This document shows, in pieces, positions 21,026 to 63,402 of a DNA stretch of 64,000 bases (position 1 is the first letter of the stretch; each line of letters starts with the position of its first letter). This DNA comes from Candidatus Krumholzibacteriia bacterium (GTDB taxonomy: Bacteria; Krumholzibacteriota; Krumholzibacteriia; Krumholzibacteriales; Krumholzibacteriaceae), in contig CAWIIQ010000001.1 in the NCBI GenBank assembly GCA_963836185.1, forward strand, positions 1,472,001 through 1,536,000, read 5' to 3'. The translations under genes were made by a program, and so were the position numbers. The notes below the pieces were generated by a model, which was not told the DNA's origin, searched no databases, and was given only the letters and a program-made list of their open reading frames with translations.

Positions 21026-22306
21026 ATGCCCGCTACAGTGATATTGGGTGGCCAGTGGGGAGACGAGGGCAAAGCCAAGGTCGTCGACTTTCTGATGTCC
21101 CGCCATGATGCCGTGATCCGCTTCCAGGGAGGAGCGAACGCAGGTCATACCGTGGTGAACGATGAGGGAACATTCAAGTTTCACCAGATACCCTCCGGAA
21201 TACTTTATCCTGATGTGACGGCCGTGATGGGAAACGGAATGGTCATCGATCCGTTTTCCTTCAGAGATGAACTCGGTGAACTTCTCAAGAGGAGCATCGA
21301 TGTGGCTGGGAGACTTTTCCTGAGCTCAGCCGCACAGGTCGTTATGCCGCACCACAAGTTCATAGACAGTCTCATGGAGGGGGAGCTCAAGAAGAATCAT
21401 ATCGGAAGTACGGGAAAGGGAATCGGTCCCGCTTACTCGTCCAAGCACAGCAGGCGCGGTATGAGGATGGGCGATTTTCTCCTCTCCAAGGAAGATCTGC
21501 ACGAACTGGTCACAAGGGCAACGGAGTGGGGTAACAGGGATATCGAATTATTTGGAGCTCCTCCGCTTTCCACGAAGAAGGTAGCGGCCGATTTCGTGAA
21601 TATACAGGAACTGCTCAGCCCGATGATCATCGACACTCAGGAACTCGTGACACGGTGGAAGCAGGAGGGAAAGAATATCATGCTCGAGGGCGCCCAGGGC
21701 ACCCTTCTCGATATAGATCACGGGACATATCCATTCGTGACATCGAGCAATTGCTCTATCGGTGGAGCCATCACGGGAAGCGGGCTCTCACACAGGGACA
21801 TCGGCAGGGCGATAGGGATATTCAAGGCTTATACGACAAGGGTCGGAAACGGACCCTTCCCGACAGAGCTCGAGGACGATACGGGCGACTGCCTTCGCGA
21901 CAAGGGGAACGAATTCGGGACAACGACGGGAAGGCCGAGGCGCTGCGGATGGTTCGATCTCGTCGCGGCACGATACGCGGTAAACCTCAATGGCCTCGAG
22001 GAGATCGCGTTGACCAAGCTCGATGTGCTCTCGGGGCAGGAGACGATCAAATTCTGCGTGGCATACGAGCTTGATGGAGAGAGGATCGACTATTTCCCGC
22101 AGAACGTGAATCTTCTCAATCGCTGCAAGCCCGTCTACGAAGAGATGCCGGGCTGGCCCGACCAGAAACTCGGGGGAGACTTCGAGGATCTGCCTGAAAA
22201 CGCGAAGGCTTACGTAAATATGCTCGAGGAGAGGCTCGGGATCCGCGCCTCGTTCATCTCGACAGGTCCCGAGCGAAGCAGCACGATCGTAAGGGAAGGC
22301 GCCTGA
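21026..22306 (+). CDS. purA: Adenylosuccinate synthetase
   Basis: QWGDEGKAK, GGANAGHT, EGAQG, GTYPFVTSS, TTGRPRRCGWFD. Confidence 0.98.
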   Translation: MPATVILGGQWGDEGKAKVVDFLMSRHDAVIRFQGGANAGHTVVNDEGTFKFHQIPSGILYPDVTAVMGNGMVIDPFSFRDELGELLKRSIDVAGRLFLSSAAQVVMPHHKFIDSLMEGELKKNHIGSTGKGIGPAYSSKHSRRGMRMGDFLLSKEDLHELVTRATEWGNRDIELFGAPPLSTKKVAADFVNIQELLSPMIIDTQELVTRWKQEGKNIMLEGAQGTLLDIDHGTYPFVTSSNCSIGGAITGSGLSHRDIGRAIGIFKAYTTRVGNGPFPTELEDDTGDCLRDKGNEFGTTTGRPRRCGWFDLVAARYAVNLNGLEEIALTKLDVLSGQETIKFCVAYELDGERIDYFPQNVNLLNRCKPVYEEMPGWPDQKLGGDFEDLPENAKAYVNMLEERLGIRASFISTGPERSSTIVREGA

Positions 22307-22310
22307 ACAG

Positions 22311-22339
22311 TTGACATATCGCCTCGCTGCTATTAGATT
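22311..22339 (+). promoter_or_regulatory. Sigma70-type promoter for tRNA-Lys
   Basis: TTGACA-17nt-TAGATT. Confidence 0.65.
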
Positions 22340-22392
22340 GATTTCGCCGCCGCTGTACGAGCGGCGGCTATACATTTCAGACTGCCATTTAT

Positions 22393-22466
22393 GGGCCGCT
22401 AGCTCATCCGGTTAGAGCACCTGCCTTTTAAGCAGGGGGTGCCAGGTTCAAGTCCTGGGCGGCTCA
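22393..22466 (+). tRNA. tRNA-Lys(TTT), no encoded CCA
   Basis: GGGCCGC/GCGGCTC acceptor; CCTGC-CTTTTAA-GCAGG; GGTTCAAGTCC. Confidence 0.95.
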
Positions 22467-22521
22467 TTTTTTCATGTATTCACTGTTAAAAGCTAGTCAG
22501 TGTTGATAATCACGTAAGTGA

Positions 22522-49253: not shown

Positions 49254-51212
<1,959 letters not shown>

Positions 51213-54923: not shown

Positions 54924-57294
54924 TCACATTCTGTCTGGTACACCGTATCTATTCCTGAACTCGATCAACGGCACGAAATCACTGTCAGCTTCCGACAGGG
55001 TCTCGAGTACCCTGTCGTAGTACTCTTTCGATGAATCAATATCGCCTTTGATCGAATACGCGTCGGACAGGATCATCATCAGCTCGGGATCGTTCGAATT
55101 AAAACGCGACAGGTCAAGGCATCGCTCTATGGCCTCGTCCGTTCTGCCTGTCTGAAGAAGGACACGGGCGTATTCCCTCCCGAAGAAGAAAAAGTCACGG
55201 GGAGATCTTCTGGCCGACTCCTGCATGGCCTCCAGCGCGCCGGCCGTCCTTGCTTCTGAGAGGAGGATGAGTCCCCGGAGATGCTCATGACGCGATGTCT
55301 CTTCGAAGACGAATGGCTTTTCCATCAGGGCAGTGAGGCGTTCGAGCTCAAAGCGGGCACTCTCAGTGTCATTATTCAGAGTGATTAACCGGACACCCCT
55401 TAGCCAGCATGCCTGCGCGGCATCGGGATCGATCCTGTCGATCAAGGCCATTTCCCTGTCGAAAGAGACCTCGTCCTTCTGTAAAAGGTAGTTTTTGGCG
55501 ATCTGAAGGTGGCCGTTGATTTTCTGTCCCTTGAAAGTCACGGAGCCGAGGTAACGATGATAATGCTCATTGGATTCACGAAGGCGTCCTGTTTCACTGC
55601 ATGACCTGCCGAGCCCTTCATGAACCGTATATGCCGGGTCATCAAGCTGCAGCAGGGTAGAATAGAGTCTGTATGCCTCTTCATGATCACCGTAAAAGAG
55701 GTATGCTCCAGCAATACTTGAAACCGGACTTGGAGAATCGGGAAGGAGATCTTTGTATTTCGTGAAAGCCTCGATCGCTTTCGAGAATTCCCCTGAGTAC
55801 AGCCAGGCTGTTCCAGTGTAGTTGTATACCTGAGCGTGCCTGCCGGTCGTGTTATCAGGGTCCTTCTCGAAAAAGAGAGCGTAATTTTCAAGCGCGCCCT
55901 CATTATCGCCTATATACCGCGAGAGGATATAACCTGTCTCGACGAACGTAGTGACAGCTTCAGGATGCGCATCGTAGTATTCCCTGAACAGTTTCAGGGC
56001 GAGGTCCCAGTTGTGAAGTACCTTTGCCTGGATTATCGTGCAGATAGCATAATCAGCTGTATTTCCCTTCCTGTCGGCGATATTCTTAGCTCGTTCGATA
56101 TATCCTGCAGCTCTCTCATAATCTCCGCCCCAGTCGTAGAATACCGCCAGCGTCTTGAGAGCATCGAGATGTTCCGGGTCCAGCTCAAGCGCGTGTTCGA
56201 TGAGCGGGATCCCTTTTGTCTGCTTACCCGAATGATATAAGTCCTCTCCGCTGGAATAGAAGACTTCAGCTTCGCTGAGTTCTCCATCTTCCACGGCCAC
56301 TTCCGTCTTTGCCGGCTCCAGGCCTCGATCCTTTCCCCCTGTGATTACATAACGCAGGATAAAGAAGATCAGTATGGCTGATACTGAGAGGGCGAAGACA
56401 GAAGTCAGTTTCCAGCCGAAAATGTGAGTGGTCCCGGCGATGAATCCCCTGCCTGTCCTGCTGTCGTCCGGGTCTCCAAAAAGACTGCGCCTTGCTTCAA
56501 TAAGGTCGTTACGCATATCCTCCATCGATCCATATCTGTCGCCCGGTGATTTGTTCAGCGCTCTTTCTATGATGCAGTCGATCTGAGGCGGTATATCCGT
56601 GCCTGCCTCGACAGCGGGAAGATGCTTGTCGTTTACAATGCTGTACAGCACTGATGCGTCGTAATCTCCTTCGAATGGTCTGCGGCCAGTCACCATCTGG
56701 TACATCAACACACCGAGGGACCAGATGTCTGAACGTGGATCGACGTGATCGTTCCGGACCTGCTCGGGTGACATGTAGGCCAGTGTTCCGGCCCCGGCCA
56801 TAGTCATGCTCCTTGTTTCGGCGCCTGACTGCTTGGCCAGCCCGAAATCCATTATCTTGACCCTGCCTTTGTCGGAAACGACCACGTTTGCCGGCTTTAT
56901 GTCCCGATGGACTATACCGGCCTCGTGCGCTGACGCCGAGCCCGTCCGCGATCTGTATCAGGATATCGAGTGACTGCCGCAGTCCCGGCTTTTCCTCGAC
57001 AAGAAGTGTGCTGAGGGTCCTTCCCTGGCAGTATGCCATCACAATAAAGAGTTTGTCGTCGAACTCTTCGACTTCATGGATGGCACATATGTTCTGATGG
57101 TCAAGAGAGGCTGCGGCCCTGGCCTCTTTCATTATCCGCTCTCGCGTGGTGCCGCCTGAAACGGATGAGGAGGAGAGGAATTTCAGAGCGACGGTCCTGC
57201 GGAGATTGATATCCTCCGCACGGTAGACCACACCCATCCCACCCTCACCGATCTTGTCGAGGATCCTGTAATGATAGACGGTTTCGCCGATCAT
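54924..57294 (-). CDS. Ser/Thr protein kinase with TM helix and extracytoplasmic TPRs; frameshift near 56935
   Basis: [13 protein letters not shown], (H)[28 protein letters not shown]; TM helix; TPR repeats. Confidence 0.9.
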
Positions 57295-57401: not shown

Positions 57402-58703
57402 TTACACTCCGACGCTTTTGATGACGACCATCGTCATATCGTCCCTCTGCGGGGCCTTCCCTGCGTGCTTGACGACTTCGTCGATGACTGTGTCTATCAG
57501 GGTCATGGCCGATGCGCTGCAGTTCGCCGTTACGATGCCGGGAAGTGGATCCTCTCCGAATTCCTCTTCTTCCGGATTGATAGCCTCGCTTATCCCGTCG
57601 GAGAAGACAAGGAGGGTATCTCCCTTATCCAGTTTCACCGAATCCTCCGTATAGGTGACGTCCTCGATCGCTCCTAGAACGAGATTGCCCGTTTCAAGTC
57701 TCTCTACGGCTCCGGTCCCCCTGACGATAAAGGGAAGGTTGTGGCCGGCATTACTGTAGATCAGTTCGGAACTGCCGGGATCGAGGATTCCGAGGAACAG
57801 GGTAGAGAAGCGCTCCGGGTCGGTATTCCTGAACATGTGTTCGTTGGAGTGGTCAAGGATAGGGCCCGGAGTGGTTGCGTCGAGATTCTGGCCGCGGAGT
57901 GTCGCGAGCATGTTCGACATAAGCAGGGCCGCCGGCATTCCCTTGCCGGAGATATCGCCCAGGCAGAAGAAAAGTCTGCCGTCACCCAGCCGTATGAGGT
58001 CGAAGTAGTCACCGCCAACTGATTTCGCGGGCATGCTCTTGCCCGCCACGTCGTATCCTTCGATCATGGGCGCGCCCTTTGGAAGCAGGCCCATCTGTAT
58101 ATTGTAGGCGATCTTCATCTCTTCCTGCATCCTCATCAGGGACTGTTCCTCCTCATACAGTCTCGCGTTTTCGATCACCTGGGCGGACTGTGTCGAGATG
58201 ATGCAGAGAAGCCGCTTGTCGGTATCGGAGAATTTATTTCCGCCATACTTGTTGAAGACATTCAGAGATCCGATTATCCGTCCCTTAAGGATAAGGGGTA
58301 CGCTCAGGAGAGTCTTGATCGGGTTTTCCTCTGATTCCAGCGTCCTGAAACGATCGTCGCTGTCAAGGTCGTCGATGATGAGTGGTTTCTTGTTCTTCAG
58401 CATCCAGCCGGTTACCTGTGTGTCGAGATGGAAGGGCATATAGCCGCTGCTCTGGTCGGCTCCCCGCATTATCGTCTTGAACTGGTTATCCTGTCCGCCG
58501 TTCTCGAGAAGCGTGACTGTGCCCTGCTCGACTTTCATATGCTTGATGCATTTCTGAACGATAAGCTCGATGATCTTTTCGAGTGAGAGGGTGGAGTTGA
58601 TCGCCGTGGAGATGTCGTTGATGATCGACAGCTCCTCGACTGCGTTCTTCAACCGTTCATTCTCGGCTTCGAGCTTGTTCATCTTGCCGTTTTCATCCGC
58701 CAT
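57402..58703 (-). CDS. GAF plus SpoIIE/PP2C (RsbU-like) phosphatase
   Basis: GAF (LLSVPL..IGSLNV); VGGDYFD, GDISGKG, NAGHN, FSDGISE, DDMT. Confidence 0.92.
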   Translation of the reverse strand: MADENGKMNKLEAENERLKNAVEELSIINDISTAINSTLSLEKIIELIVQKCIKHMKVEQGTVTLLENGGQDNQFKTIMRGADQSSGYMPFHLDTQVTGWMLKNKKPLIIDDLDSDDRFRTLESEENPIKTLLSVPLILKGRIIGSLNVFNKYGGNKFSDTDKRLLCIISTQSAQVIENARLYEEEQSLMRMQEEMKIAYNIQMGLLPKGAPMIEGYDVAGKSMPAKSVGGDYFDLIRLGDGRLFFCLGDISGKGMPAALLMSNMLATLRGQNLDATTPGPILDHSNEHMFRNTDPERFSTLFLGILDPGSSELIYSNAGHNLPFIVRGTGAVERLETGNLVLGAIEDVTYTEDSVKLDKGDTLLVFSDGISEAINPEEEEFGEDPLPGIVTANCSASAMTLIDTVIDEVVKHAGKAPQRDDMTMVVIKSVGV

Positions 58704-58885
58704 AGTCGTCCTCCGGTCCAGAATAGTTCCGGATATAAATGTATAATGACATTTCCTGGTTGTCATAATTTTAGAGCAAAGCCGCTACTTGTCTAATTTT
58801 TATATTGATTAGAGGCATCCGGTCAATCAAAATCGAAGCAGAGATCCACCTGAACCGACTTGATCAAGTATTCCCGGAGGCGTTT

Positions 58886-61629
58886 TTGCCGTATATCCCG
58901 CTGCATGTTCACAGCACCAACAGCCCGGGGATCGGGATGATGACCGCCTCGGAGATCGTCGATCGCGCCTCATTTCTCGGTATGCCCGCCATAGCTCTGA
59001 CGGACAACTGGAACACGTACGGGCATTATGAGTTCTGCAGGGAAGCAGCCGCTAAGGGCATCAATCCGGTCCTGGGAGCCGAGGTGCGGCATCTCTCGAT
59101 CACTGGGCATGACGGGCTTTTTCACCTCACTCTGCTCGCGGAGAACAACATCGGGTACGCGAATCTCACCAGGCTCGTCAGCCTTCATTTCGAAAAGGAT
59201 GGCCCCCCTCACGTAACGGTGGATGAACTGAAGGCCGGGAGTGAAGGGATCATAGCCCTGTCAGGGTGTATACGCGGCGAGACAAATCAGGCCGTACTTC
59301 ACGGGAATCTCGCGATGGAGAGGGAGGCGGCCGAGAAACTGCTTGAGATATATGGCAGGAACAGTTTCTTCCTCGAGATAATGACCCACAATCATGAGCG
59401 CGAGCAGCTTGTACTCGACAAGATGATCCTCTTGTCGAGGAAGCTCGAGATCCCGATGGTAGTGACGAATAACGACAGGTTTGTCTCGAAGGATGACGCC
59501 GGCTATTACGAGGTGCTGCGCAAGCTTGCAGGCGACATGGCCGTGGAAGAGACTTCCGAGACCCTTCCTGAGTATGTGCTCAAGACAAGGAAGGACCTCG
59601 AGCCGTATTTTTATTTTCTGGAAGACGCGCTTGAAGCTTCCGGAGAGATCGCTGACCGCTGTGATGTCGGCCTCATCGACGGAACAACGATATCTTTCAG
59701 CGATGATCCGAATGAGGACGTGACTCTTTCCGAGAAATGCAACAGGCGTTTTCTCCTGGAATTTCACGCGGCAGGAGCGGGTGGTTCTTACGACCTCAAG
59801 AACAGGATGATGAGTGAGCTGGAATGTGCCTCCCTCGAGGAGATGTCGGGATTCCTGCTCTTTCTCGAGAAACTGTTCCGAAGATCCAGGCGAGGCGGAG
59901 AATGGATCGAACTTGTCGGGAGCGATCTTTGCGAGAGTGTCATTGCATATCTTCTGGGCATTATCCCTCTGAATCCTGCCGAGCACGGGCTGATCTTCGA
60001 ATCATTCGGCGCGCCGGCGCCGGGAGTGCCGCCTGTCATTGAACTTCTACGGTCCAGAGGGTCGCGGGAGAGATTTATGAGTATTCTCAAGGATCTCCTT
60101 CCCGGATACCGGTTCAGTTTCCTGATGCAGAGGGAGGATTCATCATTTTCGACGCTGGTAAAGGATCTCGCTGAGAAGCTGGAAGTCGGGGAGTCGCTCG
60201 CGAACGAGATTCTCCAGTCGATCTCCCTTACGAGAAGGCGGAACGGGCTGGCGGATATTCTGGAGAGTTCGGAGCACCTGTCACACCTGTACAATACGGA
60301 CATAAAGGTTAGGAAGCTTCTTCATTCGGCGGCTGCTCTTCATGGGCGTGTCTCGCACTTCATACACAATACATCCAAGATCGTTGTATTGCCGCCTCAA
60401 GCGGAAAATAAAGTCTCATGGGTCAGTGGAGATGGCGGCGAGGAATTCATCATGCTCGACAGGGAGGCGATAGCGGCTCACGGCGGATGGAAACTCGTGG
60501 TTCAGCAGTCTCATTTCCTTTCGGCTCTGGCCGCTACGGTAAGCAGGATCCGGGCCCCGCATCCGACCGGCAACCATGAAAAGCAGGAAGAGTGGAGGCC
60601 GAGGGACCTCAATGATTCCAGTACATTCGAGATGATATGCGGAGGGGATACGGCAGGCGTGTACCTTCTGGAGAGCAGGGGGATCAGAGATCTTCTGATG
60701 ACGATAAAGCCTGACAGTTTCGATGATCTTGTAAATGTCATCTCTCTATACAGGCCTGCGCCTCTAGAGGGGAGACTCTGGCAGAAGTATGTCGAGAACG
60801 CGGACAGGAAGGGGAAGGTCTACCTCCCGCATCATTCTATTGCGGGCCCGCTGGAGATGACAAGGGGACTGCTGCTTTACAGAGAGCAGGTCAGGGAGAT
60901 CCTTCTCGAATCGGCCGGTCTGACGGGGCATGATGCTGTTTTTGTCGAAAGAGCGCTTGAGAGAAAGGGAGCATCTGACCTCCAGTCGGCCAGATTGATC
61001 TTCATACGCGGGGCCATGGAGCTGGATATAGACGAAGAGGACGCGCAGAAGATATTCGATTACCTGCTTCACAATGTAGGATTTACCTTCGACAAGGCGT
61101 TCAGCTGCACACAGGCGTACATCAGTTACAGGTCGGCCTTTCTGAAGGCTCACCACCCAGTCGAGTATTTCGCAGCGCTGCTCGATTCATCTGACGATGT
61201 TCGTGAAAGGAAGAAGAGATACCTCGAATACCTGGAGGCGAGCGGACCCAGGGTCTTCCCTCCCGATGTCAATTTCAGTGGACGCGGGTTTATCGCGGAG
61301 AAAGAGGCGATCAGGTCCCCGATGTCAGAGGTCTGCGATATGACGGGCGAAGAGATCGATACAGTGCTGGAAGAGAGGCGAAGCGGAAGCTATCAGTCGC
61401 TGGAGGATTTTCTGACCAGGATCAGCGGCAGGCTGGCGATGGAAACAGCGCTGAACATGGCTGAGTGCGGCCTCTTTGATTCGATGGGGGGGACAGAAAG
61501 GAGACCCGCGATATGGTGCTGGCTTTCTACGATGAGCACGCCAGGGCCGGGGAGTTCTTCCGGACACATGCCGATCCACTGAAACCCGATAAGGCTGACG
61601 ACGGCCAGTTGTCACTCTTCGATGACTGA
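58886..61629 (+). CDS. DNA polymerase III alpha (DnaE)-like protein, degenerate active site, C-terminally short; frameshift near 61490
   Basis: PHP (LHVHS, ALTD, GAEV, HLTLLAEN..GYANL); SLYRPAP, GLLLYREQV, AFLKAHHPVEYFAALL, PPDVNFS; shifted frame ends GQLSLFDD*. Confidence 0.85.
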
Positions 61630-61710: not shown

Positions 61711-61788
61711 GTCCCCATCGTCTAGCCAGGTCTAGGACACTGCCCTTTCACGGCGGCAACACGGGTTCGAATCCCGTTGGGGGCGCCA
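61711..61788 (+). tRNA. tRNA-Glu(TTC), CCA encoded
   Basis: GTCCCCA/TGGGGGC acceptor; CTGCC-CTTTCAC-GGCGG; GGTTCGAATCC. Confidence 0.96.
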
Positions 61789-61929: not shown

Positions 61930-62586
61930 ATGTACAGGCTGAAAGTGCTGCTGATAGAGGATAACCGGCTGCTTCGAGAGGGTATTTCTGAAGCCCTGAA
62001 CGATCATGGAGATTTCGAGGTGGTCGCTGTGTCTGAGGATGGCGACGCGGTCCAGAAACTGAAGGAGTCGGGAAATCATCCTGATGTGATACTGATGGAC
62101 CTCGGGCTGGAAACGACAGACAGCCTCCATCTGATGGAGCACCTTCGTACGGAACTGCCAGAGGCACGGATAATAGCCATGGACATACTCCCGGAACAGG
62201 TGGATATAGTAGAGTTCGTAGAGGCCGGCGGTTCTGGTTTTATCCTCAAGAGCGCATCCTTGCAGGACTATGTCAATACGATCAAAGCGGTTGCGGGTGG
62301 TGAAAAGGTGCTGCCCACAATGCTGACGGCCTCTTTATTCACTCAGATCGTCGAATCCGCGCTGAATAATGGAAAAGGGCTCACTGACAGCGCCATTCAG
62401 CTGACAAACAGGGAGAAGGAGATCGTCGACCTGATCTCCGAGGGATTGAGTAACAAGGAGATCGCAGCGCGTCTCCATATAGCGACACATACGGTAAAAA
62501 GTCACGTCCACAATATCCTGGAGAAACTGACACTCAACTCGCGCCTTCAGATCGCCGCCTATGCCCGCCGGCACGAATCTGATTGA
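61930..62586 (+). CDS. NarL/FixJ-family response regulator (REC plus LuxR HTH)
   Basis: LLIEDN, ILMDL, FILK, LTNREKEIV..GLSNKEIA..TVKSHVHNILEKL. Confidence 0.92.
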   Translation: MYRLKVLLIEDNRLLREGISEALNDHGDFEVVAVSEDGDAVQKLKESGNHPDVILMDLGLETTDSLHLMEHLRTELPEARIIAMDILPEQVDIVEFVEAGGSGFILKSASLQDYVNTIKAVAGGEKVLPTMLTASLFTQIVESALNNGKGLTDSAIQLTNREKEIVDLISEGLSNKEIAARLHIATHTVKSHVHNILEKLTLNSRLQIAAYARRHESD

Positions 62587-62691
62587 TTTCCCTGCCTAAT
62601 CCTTTCGGACTACATCTCTTTTCATTCTTCCGGTCGATTGTACAAGCCGCCGCCGGACCTTATGCTTCAAGCAACAAGAAGGCGGTGCAAC

Positions 62692-63402
62692 GTGAACCTG
62701 AGCACACATTACTATGTCCTTTGTCTGAGTTCTCTTAAGAGTACTCTGTTTGAGGCGTTCCGGGACTCTCTTATCGAGATCGAAAACCATGGGTTTCCAG
62801 TATTGGCACCGGCAGGAACCTCATCTCCCGATGCTGGAAAAGAGCTGCTTGGTCACGCTCGCAACGTCGACAGGTGCTTCGGGAACAACTTCAGGCTTGA
62901 ACCGCTGAGAATGGTCGTGGTCGGCGAGATGGAGATACAGTCAGCATTCAGTTCAATTACAGAGCATGGTAACGGGATCATCGGGCGGATAGAAGGCGAC
63001 CATACAGATACAAGAGCGCGTGATCTGGGAAGGATCGCATGGCCCCTTGTCAAGGAGGCTATGACACGAGTGCTGGACAGGGCGTTTCTAAAGCTTGAGG
63101 CTTCTTCGGAGCGCGGAGATACAGCATCCGGAATGGAAGCAGTTGTCAGAATGGTCAAGAAGGGACTGCGAGCCACTCTTCTGGTAGAGGATGGTTATCA
63201 CATGCGGGGCAGCATCGGCGGAACGAATCATTCCCCGGTCATATCTCCTGAAGTCGATGTGCGGGAGGCTAATGATGATGCTGTCGATGTCGTCATCGAG
63301 AAAGTGCTCGAGGCCGGGGGCAATGTCATCTTCACTCCGAGTGGATCATTGAATGAAAGAAACCGGATCGTTCTGCTGCCGTACGGCGCTGGAGCTGTGT
63401 GA
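62692..63402 (+). CDS. Bacterial archaeo-eukaryotic release factor (baeRF, family 3-like) domain protein, N-terminally short
   Basis: YYVLCLS..LFEA..HGFP; LRMVVVG; IEGDH; TLLVEDGY; DDAVDVVIEKVLEAGGNV. Confidence 0.65.
   Translation: MNLSTHYYVLCLSSLKSTLFEAFRDSLIEIENHGFPVLAPAGTSSPDAGKELLGHARNVDRCFGNNFRLEPLRMVVVGEMEIQSAFSSITEHGNGIIGRIEGDHTDTRARDLGRIAWPLVKEAMTRVLDRAFLKLEASSERGDTASGMEAVVRMVKKGLRATLLVEDGYHMRGSIGGTNHSPVISPEVDVREANDDAVDVVIEKVLEAGGNVIFTPSGSLNERNRIVLLPYGAGAV

Follow-up and report, generated by a model that had tools for sequence, protein, structure and literature searches.

A conserved DnaE paralog with an apparently dead polymerase site and a C-terminal clamp motif in the Krumholzibacteriia

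Here we describe a paralog of DnaE, the alpha subunit of Pol III, that has apparently lost its catalytic site and is kept in 50 of the 52 genomes of its order; the two genomes in which it was missed are 81% and 71% complete. The name Krumholzibacteriales is used for this 52-genome set on the strength of relatives labelled Ca. Krumholzibacteriota. The gene lies in a 64,000-nucleotide stretch of a Candidatus Krumholzibacteriia contig, referred to below as the window. A preliminary description, made from the letters of this DNA, had called it a possible C-family pseudo-polymerase and had named an intact dnaE elsewhere as a check. The genome encodes a DnaE1 and a DnaE2, both with all three catalytic aspartates, and the dead copy is its third dnaE. 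Dead polymerases that serve as adaptors are a known kind, and the present protein would be such a case from the C-family. In the accessible passages of two C-family surveys (PMC3919608, PMC12926913), the three aspartates are taken as absolutely conserved and inactive members are reported for the X and Y families only. A full-text literature search, in which subscription papers and bioRxiv supplements were thinly covered, found no description of a dead C-family DnaE adaptor. A dead DnaE retained across a whole order would mean that the Pol III alpha scaffold is selectable without catalysis.

The reading frame begins with a TTG codon, with GGAGG upstream at 58876-58880, and stays open for 867 codons up to a run of seven G residues, in keeping with the earlier estimate of about 870 open codons ended by a single homopolymer slip. 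Past the run, the other frame leads through QLSLF to a stop at 61627-61629 (Table 1). All five congeners have one extra base at the run and read the QLSLF tail in frame. The slip is likely an assembly error, because the essential genes dnaE1 (C1:2043.8-2047.2 kb) and dnaN (C3:128.3-129.4 kb) of the same assembly are likewise split across frames. Among the public contigs checked, none spans the run; a related one shows five differences in the tail, four of them at third positions of the QLSLF frame by hand frame arithmetic. An AMP-binding ligase gene (window 49355-51212) and a Ser/Thr kinase-TPR gene (54924-57294) are split as well. With several genes split, indel errors seem to be frequent in this assembly.

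Table 1 Features of the window around the dead dnaE gene
Feature	Position	Strand	Remark
purA and tRNA-Lys(TTT)	21026..22467	+	Upstream landmarks; other families of the class have them 1-2 kb before dead dnaE
Divergent GAF-SpoIIE phosphatase gene	57402..58703	-	Adjoins dead dnaE in 19/26 loci
Putative promoter TTGATT-17-CAAAAT	58805..58833	+	Matched by eye to relatives' promoters
Catalytically dead dnaE paralog (apparent)	58886..61629	+	914 codons once the one-base slip is bridged, as in congeners
PHP domain	58886..59680	+	5/9 metal ligands kept: H7, H9, E66, H80, C128
Palm/thumb, active site erased	59786..60520	+	V384 (D401; nt 60035), E386 (D403; nt 60041), V538 (D555; nt 60497)
Fingers	60599..61240	+	Most conserved domain; mean identity across the order 61%
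(HhH)2 domain	61250..61485	+	DnaE1 K-x-V-G hairpin absent in 33/33
G7 run	61486..61492	+	One base shorter than in 5/5 congeners; probable assembly error
QLSLF beta-clamp motif, C-terminal	61606..61620	+	Frame after the slip; consensus QL[S/D]LF (PMC3919608, accessible passages)
tRNA-Glu(TTC)	61711..61788	+	Fixed downstream landmark

The protein is colinear with DnaE, as had been claimed: Pfam PHP, DNA_pol3_alpha (weak), finger and HHH_6 matches follow one another, and no match to the OB fold (PF01336) was obtained in the window protein or in the family proteins searched. It falls under every NCBIfam cut-off, scoring 242 bits against the DnaE2 model NF004225 (cut-off 939). An AlphaFold2 model of the ortholog in genome G002, which is 81% identical to the window protein, has a pLDDT of 86.6 and matches E. 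coli alpha over residues 1-886 with a TM score of 0.81 and a Z score of 39. On this model, the window protein is predicted to be a structural homolog of C-family DnaE with a PHP-Pol3-(HhH)2 core. The fold and the domain order PHP-palm-thumb-fingers-HhH are those of DnaE1 (E. coli 2hnh/5fku, Taq 2hpi, Mtb 5lew), at 24-30% identity.

Residues were mapped by alignment to Taq alpha, E. coli alpha and the genome's own DnaE1, and counts refer to 33 aligned copies from the order. The alignments recovered the proposed Val, Glu and Val at the positions of D401, D403 and D555. The orthologs also lack PDxD/KxD: D401, D405, D555, R362, R390 and the steric-gate H760 are absent from all 33 copies, K553 is lost in 31, and the R709 position is Glu or Asp in every copy, a reversal of charge. 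R362, R390 and R709 are presumably the arginines that bind the incoming nucleotide. Position 403 remains Glu or Asp in 33/33. The H760 position is F739 in the window protein; in E. coli, H760F is described in the accessible part of PMC8485763 as unstable and unable to complement. The reported loss of GRGS stands, but its exact match does not, since GRGS falls on VGSD in the ungapped alignments, shifted by one residue from LVGS. In total, 64 DnaE1-invariant columns are lost, 35 of them in the palm/thumb, and of 48 DnaE1-conserved basic columns 26 are lost and 13 kept. The dead family and DnaE1 share 95 columns, and a further 56 are conserved in the dead family only (23 in the fingers, 18 in the palm/thumb, 14 in PHP, 1 in HhH), including an invariant, acidic E342 (33/33). 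The epsilon-contact Lys63 is Lys or Arg in 30/33. We infer that the protein would neither synthesize nor proofread DNA and would bind it weakly.

The C-terminus carries a QxxLF-like motif within the last 45 residues in 32/32 complete orthologs, which are 906-943 aa long and end near it. The dead protein stops close to the position of the internal clamp motif of DnaE1, and the OB and tau-binding C-terminal domains are absent. It is therefore predicted to bind the beta clamp but not to be loaded into the holoenzyme through tau. The replicative DnaE1 of the order (L135-L154) has a QTFLGF-like, non-consensus clamp motif, as against the consensus pentamer of the dead paralog.

The family is well delimited and under purifying selection. 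Full-length members score above 950 bits and ordinary DnaE below 600 bits; among the best 267 matches, 48 lack D-D-D, and all 48 are dead-family members. The dN/dS ratio (Nei-Gojobori) is 0.07-0.10 between the window gene and five congeners (dS 1.3-1.9) and 0.12-0.20 in five pairs with dS below 0.7, far below 1; values up to 0.63 in distant GC-rich pairs are put down to saturation. All six scored domains lie at 0.06-0.09 within the genus. The amino-acid rate is about twice that of DnaE1 (median dN ratio 2.03, 136 pairs).

The gene lies 5' of tRNA-Glu in 26/26 loci of the order, some of which perhaps represent one species. No imuA, imuB or polY neighbour was found in these 26 loci, in agreement with the preliminary description, which had seen no imuA/imuB adjacent; the neighbours in the window are the divergent GAF-SpoIIE gene and the tRNA. 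The 26 loci gave no evidence of a functional partnership with the GAF-SpoIIE gene. Mobile cargo inserted at a tRNA site was ruled out by the constant position and by the family order of the dead clades, which matches that of DnaE1. The distance from tRNA-Lys to the dead dnaE is about 36 kb here (window 22467-58700) as against 1-2 kb in families f5 and f6 of the class, a variable region grown within a conserved frame. Past tRNA-Glu, a LuxR-type response regulator gene and a baeRF family 3 gene (61930-63402) make up a variable downstream region.

In some relatives, lexA lies between the dead dnaE and tRNA-Glu and begins at or near the dnaE stop codon. The adjacent LexA kept its Ala-Gly site and Ser/Lys dyad in the 8 copies checked. 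In these lexA-linked genomes, a palindrome, CTAWAC-N4-GTWTAG, sits between -35 and -10 of the promoter. It is present in 9/10 lexA-linked genomes and 2/29 others, counts in which kin genomes are not independent. The derivation set, which omits G022 because its contig ends at the gene, gave 8/8 against 1/24 with at most two mismatches. The held-out set is a weak test with 1/2 against 1/5. It leaves aside the remaining genomes, which lack one end or were not parsed and two of which (G012 and G014) have perfect sites. The putative promoter in the window, absent from the list of a consensus promoter scan, has no such palindrome in its spacer. With lexA found 3' of the gene in several families of the class and the operator in its promoter, the dead dnaE appears to be ancestrally an SOS gene, and the palindrome a candidate new LexA operator.

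The window genus has neither lexA nor the palindrome at this locus and keeps the gene. The same holds for 29/39 scored genomes as regards adjacent lexA, so the function does not require SOS induction, and here an SOS gene has apparently slipped out of LexA control. Since the palindrome is absent before recA (0/5 genomes) and before dinB (0/29 upstream regions of the order within two mismatches), its regulon looks small and local. A global SOS regulon under the palindrome was rejected on its absence before recA and on a one-mismatch genome-wide scan, which found fewer sites than the reversed control in 4/5 genomes. The only lexA of the genome is part of a separate lexA-polY-dnaE2 cassette, whose LexA and palindrome are different ones.

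The landmarks purA, tRNA-Lys, lexA and tRNA-Glu also flank a degenerate dnaE in families f5 and f6, and the layout dead dnaE-lexA-tRNA-Glu occurs in f5, f6 and f9. In the f5 clade, the catalytic triad ranges from D-D-D in P0127, which keeps all three aspartates, to E-E-H. The f6-type gene is found in 17/17 f6 and 9/9 f9 genomes; in 20 copies from these two families, D401 is lost, position 403 is Asp or Glu (20/20) and D555 is kept, and lexA follows in 13. Within f9 (L310-L318), the clamp motif closes five copies of about 910 aa, none of which has lexA downstream, and lexA is retained together with a palindrome-like site in two of the three copies of about 1060 aa. This parallels the loss in the window's order.

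Family f8 has a 460-aa ORF in 9/9 genomes (L212:1584-2960, L256-L264) with a C-terminal QLxLxL-like motif, followed by lexA in 4 parsed loci and preceded by dinB in the 3 loci with flanks. Searches with hmmsearch, hhalign (best P=0.003) and Atlas found no identity for it. A low-confidence model (pLDDT 50) has DnaE structures as its top 10 matches (best E 6e-5), and a separate, weak sequence alignment is colinear with DnaE; the ORF probably represents what is left of a DnaE PHP-palm part. Operons of dinB, a small ORF and lexA in f7 have the palindrome upstream. The small ORF (L209:1930-2500; L211:7700-8290) bears cysteines, and its copy in G049 starts with QQILPF, which is clamp-like. Nothing comparable was seen at four lexA loci of f4. 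The class forms a natural series of intact site, partial loss, full loss, OB loss and probable PHP-palm remnant, with which the importance of individual surfaces can be tested.

In quick trees, the dead clades lie on one side of a branch with SH-aLRT support of 98-100 and branch in the same order as in the DnaE1 tree. Because these are quick trees with long branches, a single origin rests as much on synteny. A recent duplication of the order's DnaE1 was rejected by an AU test (p=2e-7; 24 rows of a quick tree, in which long branches may bias the result).

We then propose that the dead DnaE is a non-catalytic clamp adaptor, a reading to which we give about an even chance. The QLSLF tail would dock the protein on the beta sliding clamp, and the docked protein would bring in or gate an enzyme of repair or lesion bypass. 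In lexA-linked lineages, the adjacent LexA would repress the gene and release it after damage; in the window genus, expression would be LexA-independent. An adaptor is favoured by the constraint on all the domains and by the fixation of new surface residues. The earlier, still conjectural suggestion of a non-catalytic scaffold, decoy or regulator of the replisome gains support as to the role from the clamp motif and the ancestral lexA operon, but not as to the replisome, as the tau-binding part is absent. The accessible part of PMC12926913 assigns partner binding in a modelled DnaE2-ImuB complex to the PHP and HhH surfaces.

DinB is the obvious candidate partner by analogy with f7 and f8. Against an adaptor, the order's dinB is unlinked to the dead dnaE, and its product has its own clamp motif and so would need no adaptor for clamp binding. 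In G039 (97% complete, 2 contigs), which keeps the dead dnaE, no DinB-type or DnaE2 match was found. An obligate partnership with DnaE2 is not supported, in view of this genome and of the location of DnaE2 in its own cassette. The genome's only RNase_T protein (201 aa), considered for the idea of an epsilon scaffold, ends at its nuclease domain and has no long tail.

One alternative is that the protein is a clamp decoy or replication brake, which would fill the clamp cleft and, after damage, drive off DnaE1 or other clients without any further partner. SocB acts in this way, as described in the accessible part of PMC9690074, and the near-consensus pentamer of the paralog compared with the DnaE1 variant, the ancestral lexA operon and the shrinkage of the f8 gene to about 460 aa with its C-terminal motif kept would all suit a decoy. 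However, a short protein would be enough for this task, yet all six scored domains are constrained, and in most lineages the gene has outlived lexA and the operator, a situation in which a brake without repression ought to carry a cost. We consider this alternative unlikely.

The PHP domain raises a further alternative, a clamp-tethered, repurposed metallo-hydrolase (e.g. a 3'-phosphatase or pyrophosphatase) with a purely structural palm. The losses described earlier were seen again, with ligands H, H, I, N, E, H, C, N and R; this HHINEHCNR does not match the DnaE1 motif, defined in the accessible part of PMC12926913 as HHDHEH[C/H]DH. D23 is lost in 33/33 copies, with Glu there in 11; H48 is kept in 14. 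Family-specific residues have appeared as well: H47 (33/33), H69 (32/33), H101 (32/33), H139 (30/33) and D197 (33/33). The five retained ligands and the new invariant histidines could support an enzymatic role. On the other side, the water-activating D226 of Mtb is Asn in 31/33 (N196 in the window protein). In the accessible part of PMC5636811, Mtb D226N and D23N each abolish exonuclease activity, D226N keeps zinc, and E73 is structural, which would explain the retention of ligands. Furthermore, the residues of primer entry (G104, K107, R109) are missing, and the f5, f6 and f9 relatives have lost most PHP ligands. Such a hydrolase therefore seems doubtful to us.

An atypical but active polymerase or nucleotidyltransferase, using other carboxylates such as E342 and E/D386, would account for the acidic position 403 in the order and in f6/f9, for the invariant E342 and for the intact triad of P0127. 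It is very improbable in view of the uniform loss of D401, D555, D405, H760, R362 and R390, the near-uniform loss of K553, the reversed charge at R709 and the concentration of lost DnaE1-invariant columns in the palm/thumb. A decaying pseudogene, which one frameshift and the doubled amino-acid rate might suggest, is scarcely credible and is refuted for the family by selection and by presence in 50/52 genomes, with 32 complete orthologs open and essential genes slipping alike; the protein is maintained, as the preliminary description had held.

It is tempting to speculate that the pseudo-polymerase lineage is as old as the class Krumholzibacteriia. A SOS-induced DnaE would have lost catalysis variously in each family and come to ride the clamp, where it would organise the work of an active Y-family polymerase as an 'inverted mutasome'. 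In the Krumholzibacteriales it would have escaped LexA, acquired a new metal site made of histidines and turned into a housekeeping factor of nearly all genomes. We regard this wider picture as possible and hold it only tentatively.

The protein differs from known systems in several respects. It is an additional gene beside DnaE1, without the catalytic and steric-gate residues, the PHP exonuclease residues, the OB/tau-binding domain or the HhH hairpin of the latter. ImuB is the precedent for a dead-polymerase adaptor (PMC6511836, accessible passages). Like ImuB, the dead DnaE combines a dead polymerase site with a clamp motif and, putatively in relatives, a LexA-controlled cassette; unlike ImuB, it is of the C-family rather than the Y-family, has no imuA or dnaE2 neighbour and is kept after lexA loss. 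No ImuB-C or RecA-NT region was seen in it. DnaE2 (DnaE2A/B/X) is similarly an extra, lexA-linked dnaE copy with a disrupted PHP and no CTD, but it keeps the three aspartates, and the dead proteins do not group with it in trees. The dead protein fits the published description of DnaEX as strongly diverged extra DnaE copies outside DnaE1-3; the accessible passages of PMC3919608 report no dead DnaEX. PolX1, too, is a retained homolog of polymerases whose polymerase site is inactive, but it is of the X-family and its PHP nuclease site is intact, according to the accessible part of PMC12926913.

Several further LexA-linked loci were observed. The lexA-polY-dnaE2 cassette (G000:C1:830.5-837.0 kb; L157, L203) has a conserved promoter palindrome, TTCGGT-N4-RTTCGG, and some genomes of the order have two LexA systems side by side. 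In G049 (L252:517-1389), an RNase_H_2 (PF13482) exonuclease gene has a perfect CTAWAC-type palindrome upstream and is a probable further member of that regulon. In G039 (C1:612914-613725), an ORF with a LexA peptidase domain only lies directly before a Y-family gene, probably umuDC, and similar arrangements are found in G041, G042, G044 and G056.
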